Both the position numbers and the translations under genes were made by a program. A stretch of 64,000 nucleotides of DNA from Candidatus Thorarchaeota archaeon (GTDB lineage Archaea; Asgardarchaeota; Thorarchaeia; Thorarchaeales; Thorarchaeaceae): assembly GCA_004524445.1 (NCBI GenBank), contig SDNP01000015.1, positions 1-64,000 on the forward strand. The letters are read 5' to 3'. Below, one piece after another: positions 56,681 to 64,000 of this stretch. Under the pieces are notes generated by a model. That model saw only the letters and a program-made list of their open reading frames with translations, had not been told where the DNA came from and made no database searches. Every line of letters begins with the position of its first letter. Positions within the stretch are counted from its first letter, which is position 1.

Positions 56681-58456
56681 ATGAACGTTTTTCTATTCTT
56701 ACTTGTTAGTTTGATTGTGCATTCATTACCCATCCCCTATCGGCCTGGAATGCTCCGGTTTCGTGGACTCATTCGATGGCTTCCTCTTAGACTGATTTGG
56801 GGCACTGTTGCGTGGGCGGCTATAACAATATTCATGATGCTTACTCTTCCGTGGGCAATCATTGGACTTGTCATGAGTTTTGGACTCATGATTCTTATGA
56901 CAGCAGGATTAGGCCGTAGAAATATCGAAGATATCATTCGGGGGGCACAAATGCCTATAGCTTGTATGGGCTTGATTATAGTCATTGCTCTTCCTGCCTT
57001 CACTGGAGTGATCACATGGACTTCTGATGTGTCTAACGCAGTATTTTTCGATGACATGATTGTGGAAACGGATGAACCGCTATTTGCAGAACCAATACCT
57101 GACCACATGGTTCGATTGGTTACAAAAGACTATGCAATTTATGTGGCAAGGCAACATATCGGTCCCTTTGGCTCAAATGTTCAGGTTGCAGCATCACATA
57201 TTACAACAAAGGAGGATAGACTTGTTTGGGTCTGTACCATAACTTCAACGAATGTCCTCGCTGAAAACTTCATCAAAGGATTTATTGTCGTGGATGCCAA
57301 TGACCCACAATCTATAGACCCCCTCCTTATTAACGGTTCAACAATTCCGGTTGGGGAGGGTCTATTTTGGGATAAGAATATCCGATTTGCCAACTATCTC
57401 AATGATATGGGTGCAGCCTATCAATACGCATATCCAACATGGGATCCTGCCGGTAATATGGTCTATGTGCAGACAAGAACCCCCCTCGGATATGATTTCG
57501 TAGAGCGAGCAATAGGGCCAGTAGTATATGCAGAGAATGGCAGTGTCTATAGATACGACACCATTGAAGGTACACCAAGCTGGATAACGCAAGCATACGC
57601 GGAGGAGTATTTGGAGAGGCAGGTTGCGAGATGGGGCGGATACAGAAGGGGAGATGGATTTGACCTCTTTGCGGGAGGACTTCTCTGGATAGTAGCACCA
57701 TCAAATGACCGTCTAGAAATCACAGAGGATACAAGATACATCGTAAGTCCGGATACTGGTCGCGTTGAGGCATTTCTAGCAGTCCATCCTGTTACTAGTT
57801 CACGTTCTCTAGCCGGCGTTTTTCGTGCAACTCAGAATAAAGTCTATTATCATGACTTGAGTGGTGAAAGCTTCATCAGTGGCACAGCGGCTGCTGATAA
57901 CGTCGTTGCAGACATTTCTCAACCCGCTTCAGGGTTCTATTTTGGTTCGATGCCACTTCTCTATCCGGTCAGAATAAACTCATCCTACTCGAAATGGACG
58001 TGGTATACTCCAATCTATTGGGCAGAAGGATCGTACGATGACGATGACCAATTCAGCATCCTCAACATGCGACTTCATGCACTGGCGCTGGTTGATGCTT
58101 CCAACGTTGATAGATATGCACGCATTGATGCAGGTGGATCGTTGACGGGAGGTTCTTTGGTTGAGCAGGTGAGAAACGAATACATCACATTGTTTGGCGG
58201 AGTCACAGAGGAAGAAGAAAACGAGTTCGAATTGACAGCCACTATCATGAATAAGTCACAATATGTAGAAGATGGAGATACCTACATAGTTTTGGGCACC
58301 GACAATTCTACCGCTCCCTATATTGAAGGCACCAGAAGCTGGATGAGCCTTGAAGACTGGTACACACTGCTTAACTTGGAGGTTGGAGATAACTTCACTG
58401 CAGTAGTTCATGTCTTTGAGGGGCAATATAGAATCAAAGCAATAGAAAAGAATTGA
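56681..58456 (+). CDS. Membrane protein with 3-4 N-terminal TM helices and a large extracytoplasmic beta-rich domain
   Basis: Hydrophobic N-terminal ~110 aa, aromatic/beta-rich remainder with N-x-S/T sequons. Confidence 0.75.
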   Translation: MNVFLFLLVSLIVHSLPIPYRPGMLRFRGLIRWLPLRLIWGTVAWAAITIFMMLTLPWAIIGLVMSFGLMILMTAGLGRRNIEDIIRGAQMPIACMGLIIVIALPAFTGVITWTSDVSNAVFFDDMIVETDEPLFAEPIPDHMVRLVTKDYAIYVARQHIGPFGSNVQVAASHITTKEDRLVWVCTITSTNVLAENFIKGFIVVDANDPQSIDPLLINGSTIPVGEGLFWDKNIRFANYLNDMGAAYQYAYPTWDPAGNMVYVQTRTPLGYDFVERAIGPVVYAENGSVYRYDTIEGTPSWITQAYAEEYLERQVARWGGYRRGDGFDLFAGGLLWIVAPSNDRLEITEDTRYIVSPDTGRVEAFLAVHPVTSSRSLAGVFRATQNKVYYHDLSGESFISGTAAADNVVADISQPASGFYFGSMPLLYPVRINSSYSKWTWYTPIYWAEGSYDDDDQFSILNMRLHALALVDASNVDRYARIDAGGSLTGGSLVEQVRNEYITLFGGVTEEEENEFELTATIMNKSQYVEDGDTYIVLGTDNSTAPYIEGTRSWMSLEDWYTLLNLEVGDNFTAVVHVFEGQYRIKAIEKN

Positions 58457-58506: not shown

Positions 58507-59061
58507 CTAGCTTTTACCCATCATTTTTCTCTTCAAGGCGGCATATTTGTCCTTGATTGCACCCCAGATCTTTGAGCGAGTTGATTGATATGCAGTTGTA
58601 TGAATGGGACATTGATCCCCTAAGGGACAATCGTCAGAGAAGCCACCATATGAATGCAAAGCATCTGGTAAGGTATCGTTTACCAACTCATTCTCGAAGT
58701 CGTTCATAATCTCGCCCGTCACGTGAGTCCATTCAATATCATTGAATCGGGGTTTTGCCAGCACATCATTAACGGCACGAAATACTGTTTCTGCTACTTC
58801 AGGTCTATTCTCAGATAAGCCAATCACTACTGACTGTCCACCGGGAGTAGTCTTGGAGAATCGCATCTGTGTAGGCCCCATCTGGATAGATTCCAATGAA
58901 AGACCAGAACCCAAAGTTGGCGGGATGGTTTCAATAGCCGAAAGAAATCCAGACAAAAGCTCTGGCTCTTTGAATGCGGTCTTGCAGAAATTCCCGTAGC
59001 ATTTACTATATATTGGAAGCCCTGATTCAGTATAGACCATCAAATATTCAAGAATAGGCAT
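58507..59061 (-). CDS. Longin-like domain protein with Cys-rich insert
   Basis: LMVYTESGLPIYSK...LLSGFLSAI...LESIQMG beta-beta-alpha-beta pattern; CPLGDQCPIH; basic C-terminal helix. Confidence 0.65.
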   Translation of the reverse strand: MPILEYLMVYTESGLPIYSKCYGNFCKTAFKEPELLSGFLSAIETIPPTLGSGLSLESIQMGPTQMRFSKTTPGGQSVVIGLSENRPEVAETVFRAVNDVLAKPRFNDIEWTHVTGEIMNDFENELVNDTLPDALHSYGGFSDDCPLGDQCPIHTTAYQSTRSKIWGAIKDKYAALKRKMMGKS

Positions 59062-59157: not shown

Positions 59158-60342
59158 TCATTCTTTTGGAAGCATCTGCTTGAATACCTCTCTCTGAATC
59201 AAAAAGCGAAGAATTTCTGCAGTACCTCCGCCAATCGTCATCAATCTAGCATCTCTCAAAAACCGCTCTATGGGATAATCAGTTGTATAGCCTGAACCTC
59301 CAAGAATCTGAAGAGCATCATTAGTTATCTCAATAGCAGCCTCTGTCGTATAGAGCTTCGCAATAGAGGCTTCCTTCGTGATATTGTTGCCCTTGTCGTA
59401 CATTCGAGCTGCAGTCAGTGTGAGTGCGCGACCAGCCTCAAGTTTCATTGCCATATCTGCAATCTTGAAACTCACTCCTTCAAAGGCCCTTATAGGACGT
59501 CTGAATTGCTCACGTTCATTTGAATAATTCACTGCAACCTCAAAGGGAGTTCTGCCATATCCTATCGCCTCGCCTGCGATTGCAGTCCTTTCACTGTCTA
59601 GCTCATCCATGAGAATGGGAAATCCCTGTCCAACTTCGCCAAGTAACATATCGGATGATACGTGTACATCCTCAAGCTTGAGCCAGGAGACCCGAGCAGA
59701 TTTCATCCCAAGCAAGTCATGATCTTCTACAACACTGAAGCCATCAGTTGATGTGTCTACGATGAAGGCACTCATACCCTCTTTAGATTTGACATCAGGG
59801 TCAGTTATTGCAAAACAGCACATAAAATCAGCTTGACTGCCATTGGTTATGAATCTCTTCTCACCATTGATAATCCAGTCATCGCCATCCTTTTCTGCAC
59901 GTGTTTTCATCCCTGCAGTGTCCGATCCAACATCAGGCTCTGTAATCCCTATACACCCGATTCTGTCTCCACTGACAACAGGCATCAGGTATTTCTTTTT
60001 CTGTTCTTTTGTTCCAAATTTGCTTACAGGCATGCCATACAGAGTTGTTGATGCCATACGTGCCATGTCAAGCCCACCATTTGCTGCAGAAATCTCCTCA
60101 GCGATAATAATCTCATAGGAGAGCCCCTTATTTGACCCGCCTACTTCCTTATCATGCATAACACCCATGTACCCCGCCTTGCCAATTTTCCTAAGTAACT
60201 CTCGTGGATAGGGCCCTTCATCTATTTCATCAGCTATCGGGTAGATTTCTTTGTCACAGAATTTCCTGACTTCTTTTCGGAACTCGATTTCATCTTCTGT
60301 CCAAAGAACACTGCTCAAATAATCGTCGACCATGGTTGACAC
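59158..60342 (-). CDS. Acyl-CoA dehydrogenase
   Basis: ITEPDVGSD, NGEKRFITNG, REQF, QILGGSGY, RDAR, IGGGTAEI. Confidence 0.95.
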   Translation of the reverse strand: MSTMVDDYLSSVLWTEDEIEFRKEVRKFCDKEIYPIADEIDEGPYPRELLRKIGKAGYMGVMHDKEVGGSNKGLSYEIIIAEEISAANGGLDMARMASTTLYGMPVSKFGTKEQKKKYLMPVVSGDRIGCIGITEPDVGSDTAGMKTRAEKDGDDWIINGEKRFITNGSQADFMCCFAITDPDVKSKEGMSAFIVDTSTDGFSVVEDHDLLGMKSARVSWLKLEDVHVSSDMLLGEVGQGFPILMDELDSERTAIAGEAIGYGRTPFEVAVNYSNEREQFRRPIRAFEGVSFKIADMAMKLEAGRALTLTAARMYDKGNNITKEASIAKLYTTEAAIEITNDALQILGGSGYTTDYPIERFLRDARLMTIGGGTAEILRFLIQREVFKQMLPKE

Positions 60343-60417
60343 CTTTACAGAGCGATGAAATAATGCCTTAAATCAGTAACTAGTTAGGACATGAATTCCA
60401 ATTCCGCGAAGAATTGA

Positions 60418-60735
60418 TTATGCCTGGAAGACGAAGCGCTGCTTTTCATCATAGGAAAGCCTTACCTCCATCCCGATTTCAAGGTCCTCGATATCTCGCG
60501 AATTGCATAGTGCCAGAACAAGTGCGTTTCGCTCCAGCTTAACTATGCCTAATGTAATTGGTGCTTCGAATTTAGATGGAGGAAATTGAGAAACTGTATA
60601 GCTTTCTAGAGTCCCGTATTCAGATAGCTCTATTGCACGCATTGAACCACGTGAGATGCCGCATTTTGGGCAGATGCTTCTTTGAGGAATGATCACCTTG
60701 CCACAACTACTACACTCTGAAGCAGATATCGACAT
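60418..60735 (-). CDS. DUF35-type Zn-ribbon/OB-fold protein
   Basis: CSSCG...CPKCG, GTLESYT, LEIGMEV. Start reassigned to MSISASEC. Confidence 0.85.
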   Translation of the reverse strand: MSISASECSSCGKVIIPQRSICPKCGISRGSMRAIELSEYGTLESYTVSQFPPSKFEAPITLGIVKLERNALVLALCNSRDIEDLEIGMEVRLSYDEKQRFVFQA

Positions 60736-60813
60736 TTGACTTAACCTTGAGTGAATCACCCGCGCATGAAGAAAAAGATTTCGTGACAAAAACAAATCGA
60801 ACAGATTTCCACC

Positions 60814-61155
60814 CTATTTTGGAGTCCGTTTCTTAAGGGTCCTGACTACTGATTTAAGATGTTTCTTGATAAATCGGCGAAGTCTTGGATCCTCACTCAG
60901 ATAGATCATTGTATTTGGATTCATATCATCGACATTTCCCTCGACATCTATTGCATTGCCAAGGTCTCTTATGTCACTCCGAAATACTCGCTCTATTGCA
61001 TGCGGTGAGAAACCTTCTTTCTTGTAAACAGGCATGATTTGCCCCTTTTTTCCACTCCCTCCCAGTTTCAAAAGGGATAACACTAGTAACCAATGGTGCC
61101 AAGCCAGAGTGTAGTTTTCGAGAAACCGCATTACTTCTTCGATACTCTTAGACAT
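60814..61155 (-). CDS. Hypothetical basic protein, possibly winged-helix
   Basis: MSKSIEEV...WHHWLLVLSLLKLGGSGKKGQI; last gene of the GTPase-led cluster. Confidence 0.7.
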   Translation of the reverse strand: MSKSIEEVMRFLENYTLAWHHWLLVLSLLKLGGSGKKGQIMPVYKKEGFSPHAIERVFRSDIRDLGNAIDVEGNVDDMNPNTMIYLSEDPRLRRFIKKHLKSVVRTLKKRTPK

Positions 61156-61183
61156 ATTAATGGAGTCTCCAGTAAAAGCTTGT

Positions 61184-62572
61184 TCATTGTGATTCCTTTT
61201 CGTTGTTTTCCGACGCCTGCGAATGGGATGCATCCGTTTCTTTAGAATCATTAGCTTTATTTTCTTTAGGTGTTTCATTCCCCGTAATGTTAGATATCTG
61301 AACAGGGCGTATCTTTTCGCCTTCTATTTCAACTAGACCTGCATTGATAAATTTCTGTAACTGCCCTTTCAGTCTCACAGTCGGAACTCCTAAAGCGGAT
61401 GATAAGTGCGATAATGGAAACCATTGCGATTTATCAGCAATGATGAAATAGGCCTGAAATGTAGGCTCGTCTTCTGCGATTTGAACCAACACGTCCCATC
61501 TAGCTTCCAGCTCGCTAATTCTTGACCGAGCCAACTCAAAATCCGACATCGTAGTCCTATACTCACTTCTAATTTTGGAGAGCTGATTCTCCAAATCACC
61601 TATCGTGTGCTGCAGGTCAGCTCTCTCAGATTCTAATTGAATCTTTTCAGATTGGAGATTCTCAATGGCGGACTGCTGCTGTGCCACTGTTTCCTCCAGT
61701 GAGGATACTTTTCCTTTGAGGCGTGAGATTTCTTCTGCGCTCTTCTCGTATTCTACAACCAACTCTTCTGCAGAATCCAGCTTTGCAATTAGCTCTTTTT
61801 GCTGTTCTACCTCTGATTGTGCTTGGGCAAGCTCTCCAGAGATGATTGAATAGTCTGCATCTCGCTCCTCGATTTGGGTTATGAGGCGTTCCTTTTCATT
61901 TTCCAGTTTGTGGATTTCCTCTTCCAAATTCGCGAGCTTCTGCTCGTTCAGTTCATTACATTCATTCAACTCGTTTATTTCAGTTCTGAGAGCACTATTC
62001 TGAGCCCTCATGGTTTCCAATTCGTGTTCTCTTTCATTCAACAAAGCATGAGCCTTGACTAATCTCGTTCTCAAGTTTCCCAAATTCGATTGTAACGCTT
62101 TCGTAGAACCACGGCTTGCCTTTGACAAGATATCATATATTTCCTTGCGGCTCTCCTCAACAGCCTGATACACATGATGCAGTGAAGTTTCTGGAGATAA
62201 TGATGCCCGTAGTTCTTTTTTCACAACAGATACTGCAAGATTTGTAAAGACGCCAAGACCTGCATCCTGCAATTTCTTTGCAATACGCTCTATTGCATCA
62301 TCTGCCTCCTGTTGGACTGCATTCTCTGTGCTTCCCAAGCTGTCCTCAATAGACGAAAGAATATCATTCATTCTCAATTCAATACGTTCATAGGTCGAGC
62401 TAATCGAATCTGTAAACTCCAAGCCGGTTTTCTCACGGGGTGTCGATGACTCGAGCTGCCCCACGGAATCGGAGTCTGATTCTTTCAGAGCCTTATGCAT
62501 GAGTTCTCTGGTCTTCTGTTCAGTCTCAGAGTCATCTTCGAACTTTTTTTCGTCATGGGGAGGCACGGGCAT
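61184..62572 (-). CDS. Long coiled-coil protein with C-terminal winged-helix domain (track start 62593)
   Basis: About 200 aa of heptad repeats, then FPLSHLSSALGVPTVRLKGQLQKFINAGLVEIEGEKI. ATG 62572 lies 4 nt after the upstream stop. Confidence 0.8.
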   Translation of the reverse strand: MPVPPHDEKKFEDDSETEQKTRELMHKALKESDSDSVGQLESSTPREKTGLEFTDSISSTYERIELRMNDILSSIEDSLGSTENAVQQEADDAIERIAKKLQDAGLGVFTNLAVSVVKKELRASLSPETSLHHVYQAVEESRKEIYDILSKASRGSTKALQSNLGNLRTRLVKAHALLNEREHELETMRAQNSALRTEINELNECNELNEQKLANLEEEIHKLENEKERLITQIEERDADYSIISGELAQAQSEVEQQKELIAKLDSAEELVVEYEKSAEEISRLKGKVSSLEETVAQQQSAIENLQSEKIQLESERADLQHTIGDLENQLSKIRSEYRTTMSDFELARSRISELEARWDVLVQIAEDEPTFQAYFIIADKSQWFPLSHLSSALGVPTVRLKGQLQKFINAGLVEIEGEKIRPVQISNITGNETPKENKANDSKETDASHSQASENNEKESQ

Positions 62573-62576
62573 TTCC

Positions 62577-62954
62577 TCAGTGTAATATTCCACGATAACC
62601 GAGAGCTGTTAGCCTGGATGAGGTCGCTTTTAGTTTCTCAGAAACACGCGAAGCTTCCTGAATCTTCGACATCAGTTCTTTCCGGAATTCAGCAGTTGAG
62701 AGTTCACCTCGATCCAGACGTTCGGTGAGCTTTGCCCGATCCTCTTGCAGGACTTGCCGCTTCCGCTTGAGTCGTTCATATTCAGCAACAAGGGACACCA
62801 ATTCGTTTTTTGTTTCATCATCTAGCGTCTCCACACCAGGGGCGCTTCGCTGAATATCCGGTTTGTCACCACTAGTCAGGATTTCTCTTCCTCGTTTTTT
62901 CTGTTCTTTCTCTTTCTTTTTTCCGCGACGTCTCCATCTGTCAAGTAGTCCCAT
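62577..62954 (-). CDS. Small coiled-coil protein with basic amphipathic N-terminus and SHOCT/steadiness-box-like hairpin
   Basis: MGLLDRWRRRGKKKEK; LTERLDRGELSTAEFRKEL. Confidence 0.7.
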   Translation of the reverse strand: MGLLDRWRRRGKKKEKEQKKRGREILTSGDKPDIQRSAPGVETLDDETKNELVSLVAEYERLKRKRQVLQEDRAKLTERLDRGELSTAEFRKELMSKIQEASRVSEKLKATSSRLTALGYRGILH

Positions 62955-62971
62955 TTTTCCGTCTCCTATGA

Positions 62972-63541
62972 TTATTCTGTTAACATTGTTTGAATATTCT
63001 CGAGTTTTGTTTCAAGCTCCTGTCGCATTTCCCTAGCAACTGCAGCTTTCTTTTCATATTCGTCTGCACCGGCAGGATCATTCAATGCCATTTCCAGCAG
63101 TTCGTTTTCCTTCTCAAATAGCATAGCAATTTTCGTTGAGATTTGTTTTGATTGCCTCTGAATCTCACTTCGGTCAGCATCTTGGAGTTCTTGCTCTTCT
63201 ATTAGCTCCTCTGATTGATTGTCTTCCCCAATAATGAATTCAGAACTCTCAAGCTTTTTGAGGTCACCATTCTCACTGGTTAAGCGGACCTTGATTCCTT
63301 CCTTGAGAGTTGCCTCAAGGGTATTCATTCGGTCTTCAATTTGATGCATCTTTGACTCTAAGCGCTTCATGACAATAGTTTGATTTTCAACAGTTCTGAA
63401 AAGCTCATCTGCAAATTGCTCGAAATTCAGCCCATACTTGAAGCTGTCAAGAATATCCTTTATACTGGATATCTCTCTGACCAGCTTTTTTCGTTCTTCC
63501 TCGCTTACCAGACTTTTCATTTTACTATGTTCATCAGACAT
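62972..63541 (-). CDS. Coiled-coil hypothetical protein
   Basis: Two heptad blocks separated by an acidic linker; starts 3 nt downstream of the GTPase stop. Confidence 0.75.
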   Translation of the reverse strand: MSDEHSKMKSLVSEEERKKLVREISSIKDILDSFKYGLNFEQFADELFRTVENQTIVMKRLESKMHQIEDRMNTLEATLKEGIKVRLTSENGDLKKLESSEFIIGEDNQSEELIEEQELQDADRSEIQRQSKQISTKIAMLFEKENELLEMALNDPAGADEYEKKAAVAREMRQELETKLENIQTMLTE

Positions 63542-63544
63542 TTT

Positions 63545-64000
63545 TTAGTCAACCTCAATATCCCGTACTACTTTGAAATCAATTGTTTCAAAGGCTAACC
63601 CCCGAAGAAGGCCCAGCCATCTGTCTCTGAAGTCACGTTGATTCGCTTGCATCCCATAGGCTGGAATTCCAAGTTTCTTGCCCACCGTTTCCGGGGAAAG
63701 TGCCCCCGTGATATCTTGTTTGTTTGCAACTGCTATTATTCGAGCATAGGGTAGTTCATTCTTTAAGACAGGATATGCAACTCTTCGTGTCCAAGCGAGA
63801 TTATCATTGGTAGAGTCTGTGACTACAAACACCATGCTGCCAGATCGTATTATTTTCCCCCATTCTTGTACGAACCGGTCTTGCCCGCCCAAGTCAAACA
63901 TGCTAAATACATAGGGGTCAAAATTGGCTTTCAGCAAAGCTTTGTCCCCGAAAAATGTTGGTACATACTCCTGTGGAGGGCCTTTGGATGGTAGAGTGGC
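63545..64000 (-). CDS. Ras-superfamily (Arf/Rab-like) small GTPase, 5' end outside the window
   Basis: Frame open to 64000: EYVPTF (G2), FDLGGQDRF (G3), VFVVTDST, ANKQD (G4), MQA (G5-like). G1 is not in the window. Confidence 0.9.
   Translation of the reverse strand, partial: ATLPSKGPPQEYVPTFFGDKALLKANFDPYVFSMFDLGGQDRFVQEWGKIIRSGSMVFVVTDSTNDNLAWTRRVAYPVLKNELPYARIIAVANKQDITGALSPETVGKKLGIPAYGMQANQRDFRDRWLGLLRGLAFETIDFKVVRDIEVD

Follow-up and report, generated by a model that had tools for sequence, protein, structure and literature searches.

A conserved seven-gene cassette around a longin-fused Arf-like GTPase in Thorarchaeia and its candidate role as a switch module linked to a giant surface protein

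Results

Gene content of the locus

The stretch of DNA analyzed here, referred to as the window, comprises the first 64 kb (positions 1 to 64,000) of contig SDNP01000015.1 of a Candidatus Thorarchaeota archaeon (GenBank assembly GCA_004524445.1; genome G000 and contig C38 in our coding). At its end lie five minus-strand open reading frames, which encode, in this order, a small GTPase and the proteins termed B189, C125, CCwH, and D113. Five co-oriented genes separated by gaps of 3, 17, 4, and 28 nucleotides had been reported in a first-pass annotation made from the sequence alone, and this is confirmed by the coordinates of the reading frames (Table 1). A ribosome-binding-like motif (GAGG, GGAG, or GGTGA) is present close upstream of each of the five starts. 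The GTPase gene is cut by the window edge and continues to contig position 64426. The annotation had treated the five genes as one unit. They do belong to a conserved functional unit around an intact GTPase, as supported by a conserved gene order, by joint deletion, and by reassembly of the set in other orders in other Asgard lineages. They are not the whole unit, however, but the downstream end of a seven-gene cassette, to which two upstream genes coding for the protein F24 and a giant surface protein belong as well, and the 113-codon gene at the other end is confined to Thorarchaeia.

Table 1. Coordinates of the five cassette genes within the window and of their parts
Feature	Position	Strand	Description
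GTPase, C-terminal half (residues 143-293 of 293 amino acids)	63545-64000	-	Full gene at C38 63545-64426
B189, acidic, 189 amino acids	62972-63541	-	N-terminal helical/coiled-coil block, variable linker, C-terminal hairpin
C125, basic, 125 amino acids	62577-62954	-	N-terminal amphipathic helix, variable linker, helical hairpin with G-[EK]-[IL] turn
C125 basic amphipathic N-terminal helix (MGLLDRWRRR type)	62913-62954	-	Candidate membrane anchor, by hydrophobic moment and charge
CCwH, acidic, 462 amino acids from ATG at 62572 (469 amino acids from GTG at 62593)	61184-62572	-	N-terminal helical region, coiled coil, C-terminal winged helix
CCwH coiled-coil rod, about 195 residues (about 170-365 of 469)	61499-62086	-	Heptads
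CCwH C-terminal winged helix	61304-61480	-	Most conserved part, column identity about 0.78; mean net charge +1
D113, stand-alone winged helix, 113 amino acids	60814-61155	-	Acidic third helix and wing, basic C-terminal helix

F24, encoded outside the window, is a longin/winged-helix protein of 387 amino acids. It opens with a WD motif that is invariant in 19 homologues and is followed by GP in Thorarchaeia and by GA or GT elsewhere, and its C-terminal winged helix passes Pfam HTH_20. The giant protein is a single-pass surface protein of about 1900-2400 amino acids in relatives and carries a conserved inner tail motif. In G000, F24 and the 5′ part of the giant gene are located on another contig, C17, and the ends of C17 and C38 share an overlap of 432 base pairs with 93% identity. 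A join of the two contigs is likely; the identity of the overlap suggests strain variants or a repeat. The giant gene is thus split over C17:1-6380 (L119) and C38:64720-66910 (L001:6721-8910), with F24 directly upstream. In two salt-lake metatranscriptome studies, contigs match short segments of the giant gene and of four of the five genes, and two of these contigs span the GTPase-B189 and B189-C125 junctions. As DNA carry-over is possible, we do not regard them as proof that the genes are expressed or form a single transcript.

The GTPase had been assigned to the Ras family on the basis of the motifs YVPT, DLGGQ, and NKQD. These are indeed present in the windowed part, but the G domain is Arf-like, matching Pfam Arf above cut-off (E value of 1e-11), and it is fused to a longin domain. 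Its closest structures in the PDB are Arf1/2 and Asgard ArfR (8oun, 8oum), and the features of an Arf-type G domain, intact G1 to G4 motifs and the GQ and W of switch II, are all found. The G1 motif (GHGGTGKTT) and an N-terminal domain of 120 amino acids lie beyond the window end. As all of 36 homologues, which come from 8 families, retain G1, the PT of switch I, GQ, and NKQD without change, the GTPase is very likely an active switch. A family profile of the N-terminus aligns over residues 1-118, from end to end, with the longin domain of AP-2 mu (E value of 0.0013), sigma being matched likewise, and the N-termini of homologues match Fuz_longin_1, Longin, and Clat_adaptor_s, all below cut-off. 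Judged by these matches, the protein combines a longin domain at its N-terminus with an Arf-like G domain; the longin domain stands in the place of the Arf-defining N-terminal amphipathic helix, which is missing. Four arginines are conserved in this longin domain (R3, R53, R55, and R72; not mapped onto the arginine-finger position). A paralogous pair exists in the same genome (C19:16049-19812, L120), where an F24-like longin/winged-helix gene (26% identity) is followed by one for a longin-GTPase of 642 amino acids with a long acidic tail.

The partner proteins

B189 has a conserved N-terminal block (residues about 10-85) and a C-terminal helical hairpin (about 125-185). None of its 93 retrieved relatives bears an informative name, and an Atlas search gave no usable match and no named family. 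C125 had been described as a small protein with a basic amphipathic N-terminus and counted among the coiled-coil proteins. The N-terminus is kept across Asgard archaea, with hydrophobic moments of 0.41-0.84 and net charges of +1 to +6 in roughly 60 distinct N-termini (one member, from family f13, falls outside the motif), but C125 is not a long coiled coil; it consists of the amphipathic helix and a helical hairpin. Because this N-terminus is conserved, a membrane link of the unit is plausible. When the GTPase (with GTP and Mg) was modeled together with residues 40-125 of C125, the predicted complex scored 0.02 (mark, 0.32), which is evidence neither way. The idea that the hairpins of B189 and C125 are paralogues was not supported (hhalign probability of 4%), and PDB sequence searches with C125, D113, and F24 yielded no significant family.

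The predicted coiled coil of about 460 amino acids ending in a winged helix was borne out by CCwH. In its rod, the hydrophobicity of heptad a/d positions is 0.62-0.88, compared to 0.1-0.3 elsewhere; the rod is nearly gap-free among Thorarchaeia and would be roughly 29 nm long if continuous. The winged helix, a fold assigned from the sequence only, gave weak matches to winged helices of the ArsR/TrmB/MarR type. Its recognition helix and wing have mean charges of +1.6 and -0.2, which, like those given below for D113, are charge counts and not surface calculations.

D113 is basic, as had been noted (isoelectric point of 9.9), and must be added to the winged-helix proteins: its alignment-based AlphaFold2 model shows a stand-alone winged helix with a mean predicted local distance difference test score (pLDDT) of 92.5, and a single-sequence fold (pLDDT of 49) was discarded. 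A fold search returned generic winged helices (best Z score of 8.3; root mean square deviation of 2.8 Å over 88 residues), in which ORC1, forkhead, JetA/JetB, and MarR tie in score and no single family stands out. A role as an SMC/Wadjet part was dropped, as there is no SMC ATPase nearby, and an Atlas search with D113 gave only leads below 0.9. The third helix and the wing are acidic, with means of -2.4 and -3.3, and the basic charge resides in the last helix. The basic recognition helix and wing of regulators of the MarR/ArsR/PadR type are found in neither D113 nor CCwH, and the charge pattern of D113 is not the usual repressor pattern. Orthologues of D113 were found in Thorarchaeia only, which makes it a Thorarchaeia-only addition to the unit.

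Conservation, block deletion, and co-loss

Conservation of the gene neighborhood across Asgard genomes, a check proposed with the first-pass annotation, was found at two levels: the order F24-giant-GTPase-B189-C125-CCwH-D113 is kept in about 20 relatives, and parts of it recur in seven further families. Because the same order recurs in so many relatives, which belong to many genera, the arrangement is far beyond chance. In seven Thorarchaeia genomes (85-97% complete), orthologues of the GTPase, C125, CCwH, D113, and F24 were not found. Since a missing contig could mimic absence, the flanking site was read directly. In four of these seven genomes, the flanking thiolase and DUF35/acyl-CoA dehydrogenase genes are present on one contig and the six cytoplasmic genes are gone. 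The thiolase gene directly abuts the DUF35 and acyl-CoA dehydrogenase genes in G005 and G010, and in G003 and G107 the site is occupied by another giant membrane protein without the tail motif (3349 and 3638 amino acids; L141:3725-13774 and L142:3353-14269). As the flanks are intact in these four genomes, the six cytoplasmic genes, D113 included, were deleted as a block and are separate from their lipid-metabolism neighbors. A tie of D113 to the downstream DUF35 and acyl-CoA dehydrogenase genes was rejected, because D113 vanishes with the cassette and those genes stay.

Besides the complete cassette, a reduced operon F24-GTPase-C125-D113 was seen, which is devoid of the giant gene, B189, and CCwH. 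As these three genes are separated by retained ones, three deletions are needed to arrive at this state. On a tree of the concatenated locus proteins (quick LG+G4 analysis; the rows for L034, L086, and L099 show the CCwH slot only), the reduced state requires 5 changes, at least 4 of which are forced by the starred branches, and a single origin was rejected by the approximately unbiased test (p-AU of 1.4e-5). The three-gene drop-out occurred in 3-5 lineages. In five reduced genomes, no B189 or CCwH orthologues were found genome-wide, only paralogous surface-protein tails remaining. When the giant gene was compared with B189, all three independent pairs were concordant. We interpret the joint loss of the three genes as a genuine indication of a sub-module, if a statistically thin one.

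Recurrence in other Asgard families

In the seven further families, the parts of the cassette are reshuffled. The order is giant-F24-GTPase-C-winged helix in f13, F24-GTPase-B-longin/winged helix-winged helix in f8, and F24-GTPase-C in f7 and f19. In f16, F24-GTPase-B is followed on an overlapping contig (546 base pairs, 87%) by B-giant-longin/winged helix-winged helix-C. In f6, GTPase-B is found at one place and F24-C at another, and in f21 F24-C is present with the GTPase elsewhere in the genome. C125 therefore adjoins F24 even without the GTPase, and in five families a B-like gene lies directly 3′ of the GTPase. In position, size, and layout, the distant B-like proteins correspond to B189. 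The coiled-coil/winged-helix protein has only 157-239 amino acids in f6, f8, f13, and f16, so the long rod is not a fixed feature. The idea of tethering by a long coiled coil is not supported by this comparison, as CCwH is shortened in these four families and dispensable in many Thorarchaeia. A more distant coiled-coil/winged-helix gene adjoins a small WD..GP longin gene in f9. The present analysis adds three points: deletion of the genes as a clean block, recurrent loss of three cassette genes, and a neighbor rule that places C125 with F24 and B189 with the GTPase.

Discussion

Small GTPases occur by the dozen in Asgard archaea, and the cassette described here names testable partners for one widespread member. 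Longin-fused Arf/Rag-like GTPases of Asgard archaea have been published (the AArf clade, Zhu et al. 2025, PMC11914678; longin-GTPase architectures, Tran et al. 2024, PMC10933270), and our GTPase resembles them in its N-terminal longin domain, Arf-like G domain, and intact motifs. Zhu et al. stated that native regulators and effectors of these GTPases remain to be established (PMC11914678), and the roles, too, are given as unknown in the Asgard small-GTPase papers (PMC11914678, PMC10933270). Unlike the GTPases of these studies, for which no native regulators or effectors were named, the one studied here has a conserved partner set. The GTPase type and Asgard GTPase-activating protein (GAP)-like longins are already published; a search that mostly did not cover subscription journals found no paper on this operon or partner set.

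Arf proteins are defined by an N-terminal amphipathic helix (Vargova et al., 10.1101/2024.02.28.582541). The G domain described here is most similar to the Arf1 and ArfR structures, but unlike in ArfR and Arf, a longin domain replaces that helix and an amphipathic helix sits on a separate protein, C125. The cassette suggests a route to the membrane for an Arf-like GTPase that has no membrane helix of its own. Like the Asgard DENN-roadblock-Rab operon (Liu et al., 10.1101/2020.10.19.343400), it is a conserved Asgard operon around a small GTPase with longin/roadblock-type partners, but the GTPase class and the partners differ, and none of the seven genes encodes a DENN or roadblock protein. Compared to GATOR1 (NPRL2-NPRL3), C9orf72-SMCR8, and FLCN-FNIP, which have Rag/Arf GTPases as counterparts, F24 is likewise a longin protein with WD/GP motifs and winged helices beside an Arf-like GTPase; a WD motif is known from C9orf72 and a GP motif from GAP-type longins (PMC12290439). 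A second longin/winged-helix gene in the f8 and f16 operons, in f8 with one weak Pfam NPR2 match (E value of 0.012), adds to the likeness. Unlike in these complexes, F24 has no conserved arginine finger and the second longin domain is on the GTPase itself, and the giant surface protein, the hairpin proteins, and the coiled-coil/winged-helix protein have no counterpart in eukaryotic longin GAP complexes.

From gene content, order, domain types, and joint retention and loss, which were observed directly, we infer that the seven genes may form a GTPase switch module at the inner membrane face, composed of a core and an optional arm through which the switch would be linked to the giant surface protein. 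We assign this interpretation a probability of roughly 0.5. The core would consist of the longin-Arf GTPase, F24, and C125. F24 would probably pair with the longin domain of the GTPase and set its nucleotide state, and the basic amphipathic N-terminus of C125 would hold the core at the membrane and so supply in trans the anchor that the GTPase lacks. Docking of C125 on F24 is suggested by the fact that F24 is its usual neighbor. B189, a likely GTP-dependent effector, and CCwH, a putative rod-shaped scaffold, would form the optional arm, which is kept where the giant surface protein is kept and might couple the switch to the placing, clustering, or engaging of that protein. D113 would be a late, Thorarchaeia-specific winged-helix subunit, more likely protein-binding than a standard repressor. 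The natural reduced versions separate the core (F24, GTPase, and C125) from the parts that go with the surface protein (B189 and CCwH).

Several results weigh against this interpretation. All links between the parts are genomic. The co-loss is based on only three independent pairs on starred branches, for which the sign test gives a p value of 0.25 and significance is unreachable, and single events break the pattern: L093 lost B189 alone, L094 lost CCwH alone, and L115 retains C125 alone. C125 is solitary in f3 and f12, and the B-like proteins outside Thorarchaeia match B189 weakly (hhalign probability of 26%). No arginine finger is conserved in the longin domain of F24, and a sequence search of the PDB with the CCwH winged helix gave archaeal transcription regulators as the top matches (E value of 1e-5).

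In one alternative, the giant protein would act as a receptor and the GTPase as a relay, with the winged helices of CCwH, D113, and F24 as DNA-binding outputs that regulate transcription or tie the chromosome to the membrane. Three of the seven proteins carry winged helices, the closest solved sequence relatives of CCwH are the ArsR-like regulators PH1932 and 2p4w, D113 with its high isoelectric point resembles winged helices of MarR, PadR, F93, and ORC, F24 has its HTH_20 match, and a 29-nm rod could reach from the membrane to DNA. We nevertheless consider surface-to-gene signaling rather unlikely, as D113 is acidic at the recognition-helix position and in the wing and has its basic charge in the C-terminal helix, the CCwH winged helix is near neutral, winged helices of ESCRT-II act as protein-binding modules (PMC11188069), and D113 was not found outside Thorarchaeia. 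Least probable of the explanations considered is a shared operon without a single complex, that is, a core GTPase module accompanied by merely co-regulated genes, such as genes needed to produce or export the giant surface protein. It would account for the scattering of the parts over the genome in f2, f3, f6, f12, and f21 and for the single-gene losses in L093, L094, and L115, but the same parts reunite in other orders in distant families, three separated genes dropped out jointly more than once, and the four partners are all devoid of enzyme domains.

The first-pass annotation had favored a membrane-remodeling or long-range tethering machine of the ESCRT/Cdv type under GTPase control. C125 offers a basic amphipathic N-terminus, the G-x-[IL] turn of its hairpin is reminiscent of the steadiness box of ESCRT-I, and the best Pfam match of one distant B-like protein is CdvA (E value of 1.6e-4, below cut-off). 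The CdvA hairpin has been linked to the steadiness box (PMC11188069), and helical hairpins, a coiled coil, and winged helices are parts that the cassette has in common with ESCRT-I, CdvA, and ESCRT-II. Specific kinship was not found, however, with the Vps23_core and CdvA profiles or the alignments of C125 and B189: Vps23_core matches nothing in the genome at an E value of 10, the CdvA model has no match on these genes in this genome, and neither family is among the top families for either alignment. Unlike in these systems, there is no significant profile match and no linkage to ESCRT-III or Vps4, since no ESCRT-III, Vps4, or ubiquitin gene is present in the operon neighborhoods read, and four families have only a short coiled coil, which the reduced operons lack altogether. 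We therefore regard such a machine as distinctly unlikely, if less so than mere co-regulation.

The switch module at the membrane can be extended, tentatively and with some doubt, to an archaeal "focal adhesion"-like machine, in which a giant adhesin would have its inner tail gripped by a longin adaptor and would be switched by the longin-Arf GTPase, anchored by the amphipathic-helix protein, and braced by the coiled-coil/winged-helix rod. In Myxococcus, the small GTPase MglA, its long coiled-coil effector AglZ, and surface adhesion proteins work as one unit at Agl-Glt focal adhesions; the comparison would be an analogy only, and no motor genes are found here. If true, this extension would mean prokaryotic Arf-type control of cell-surface contact early in Asgard evolution.

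Neighboring genes and further observations

Genes for a DUF35/ChsH2-like protein and an acyl-CoA dehydrogenase are located at window positions 59158-60795 (-). The GTPase cassette was apparently inserted into a metabolic cluster that consists of these two genes and, upstream of F24, the genes for the thiolase, biotin carrier, and carboxyltransferase. The acyl-CoA dehydrogenase gene adjoins a gene for an orphan longin-like protein of 184 amino acids (58507-59061, -; Fuz_longin_1, E value of 0.037), which some relatives have and others do not. In most relatives, among them those of the sister family f2, the cluster adjoins a gene for a conserved membrane protein of 591 amino acids with an N-terminal transmembrane block (56681-58456, +). 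A small conserved gene of 110-140 codons is often found between the DUF35 and acyl-CoA dehydrogenase genes (L048:11242-11586 and others) and in f2 is located 3′ of D113; its product may be ribbon-helix-helix-like. Also in f2, a gene inserted between CCwH and D113 (L059:10420-11952) encodes 510 amino acids, of which the N-terminus is longin-like and which have no Pfam match.

In f13 and f21, genes for Rab-like GTPases or Rab fusions adjoin the cassette or its GTPase on the opposite strand (L064:10180-10731, L065:5133-6936, and L066:5041-6876). A more distant longin-GTPase of f3, not an orthologue by score, borders a ubiquitin/ESCRT cluster with one OB-fold-like gene in between (L076:351-9032 and L077). 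In an f12 genome, a pair of C125-like genes facing each other has neither a GTPase gene nor F24 in its vicinity (L129:8053-9034).

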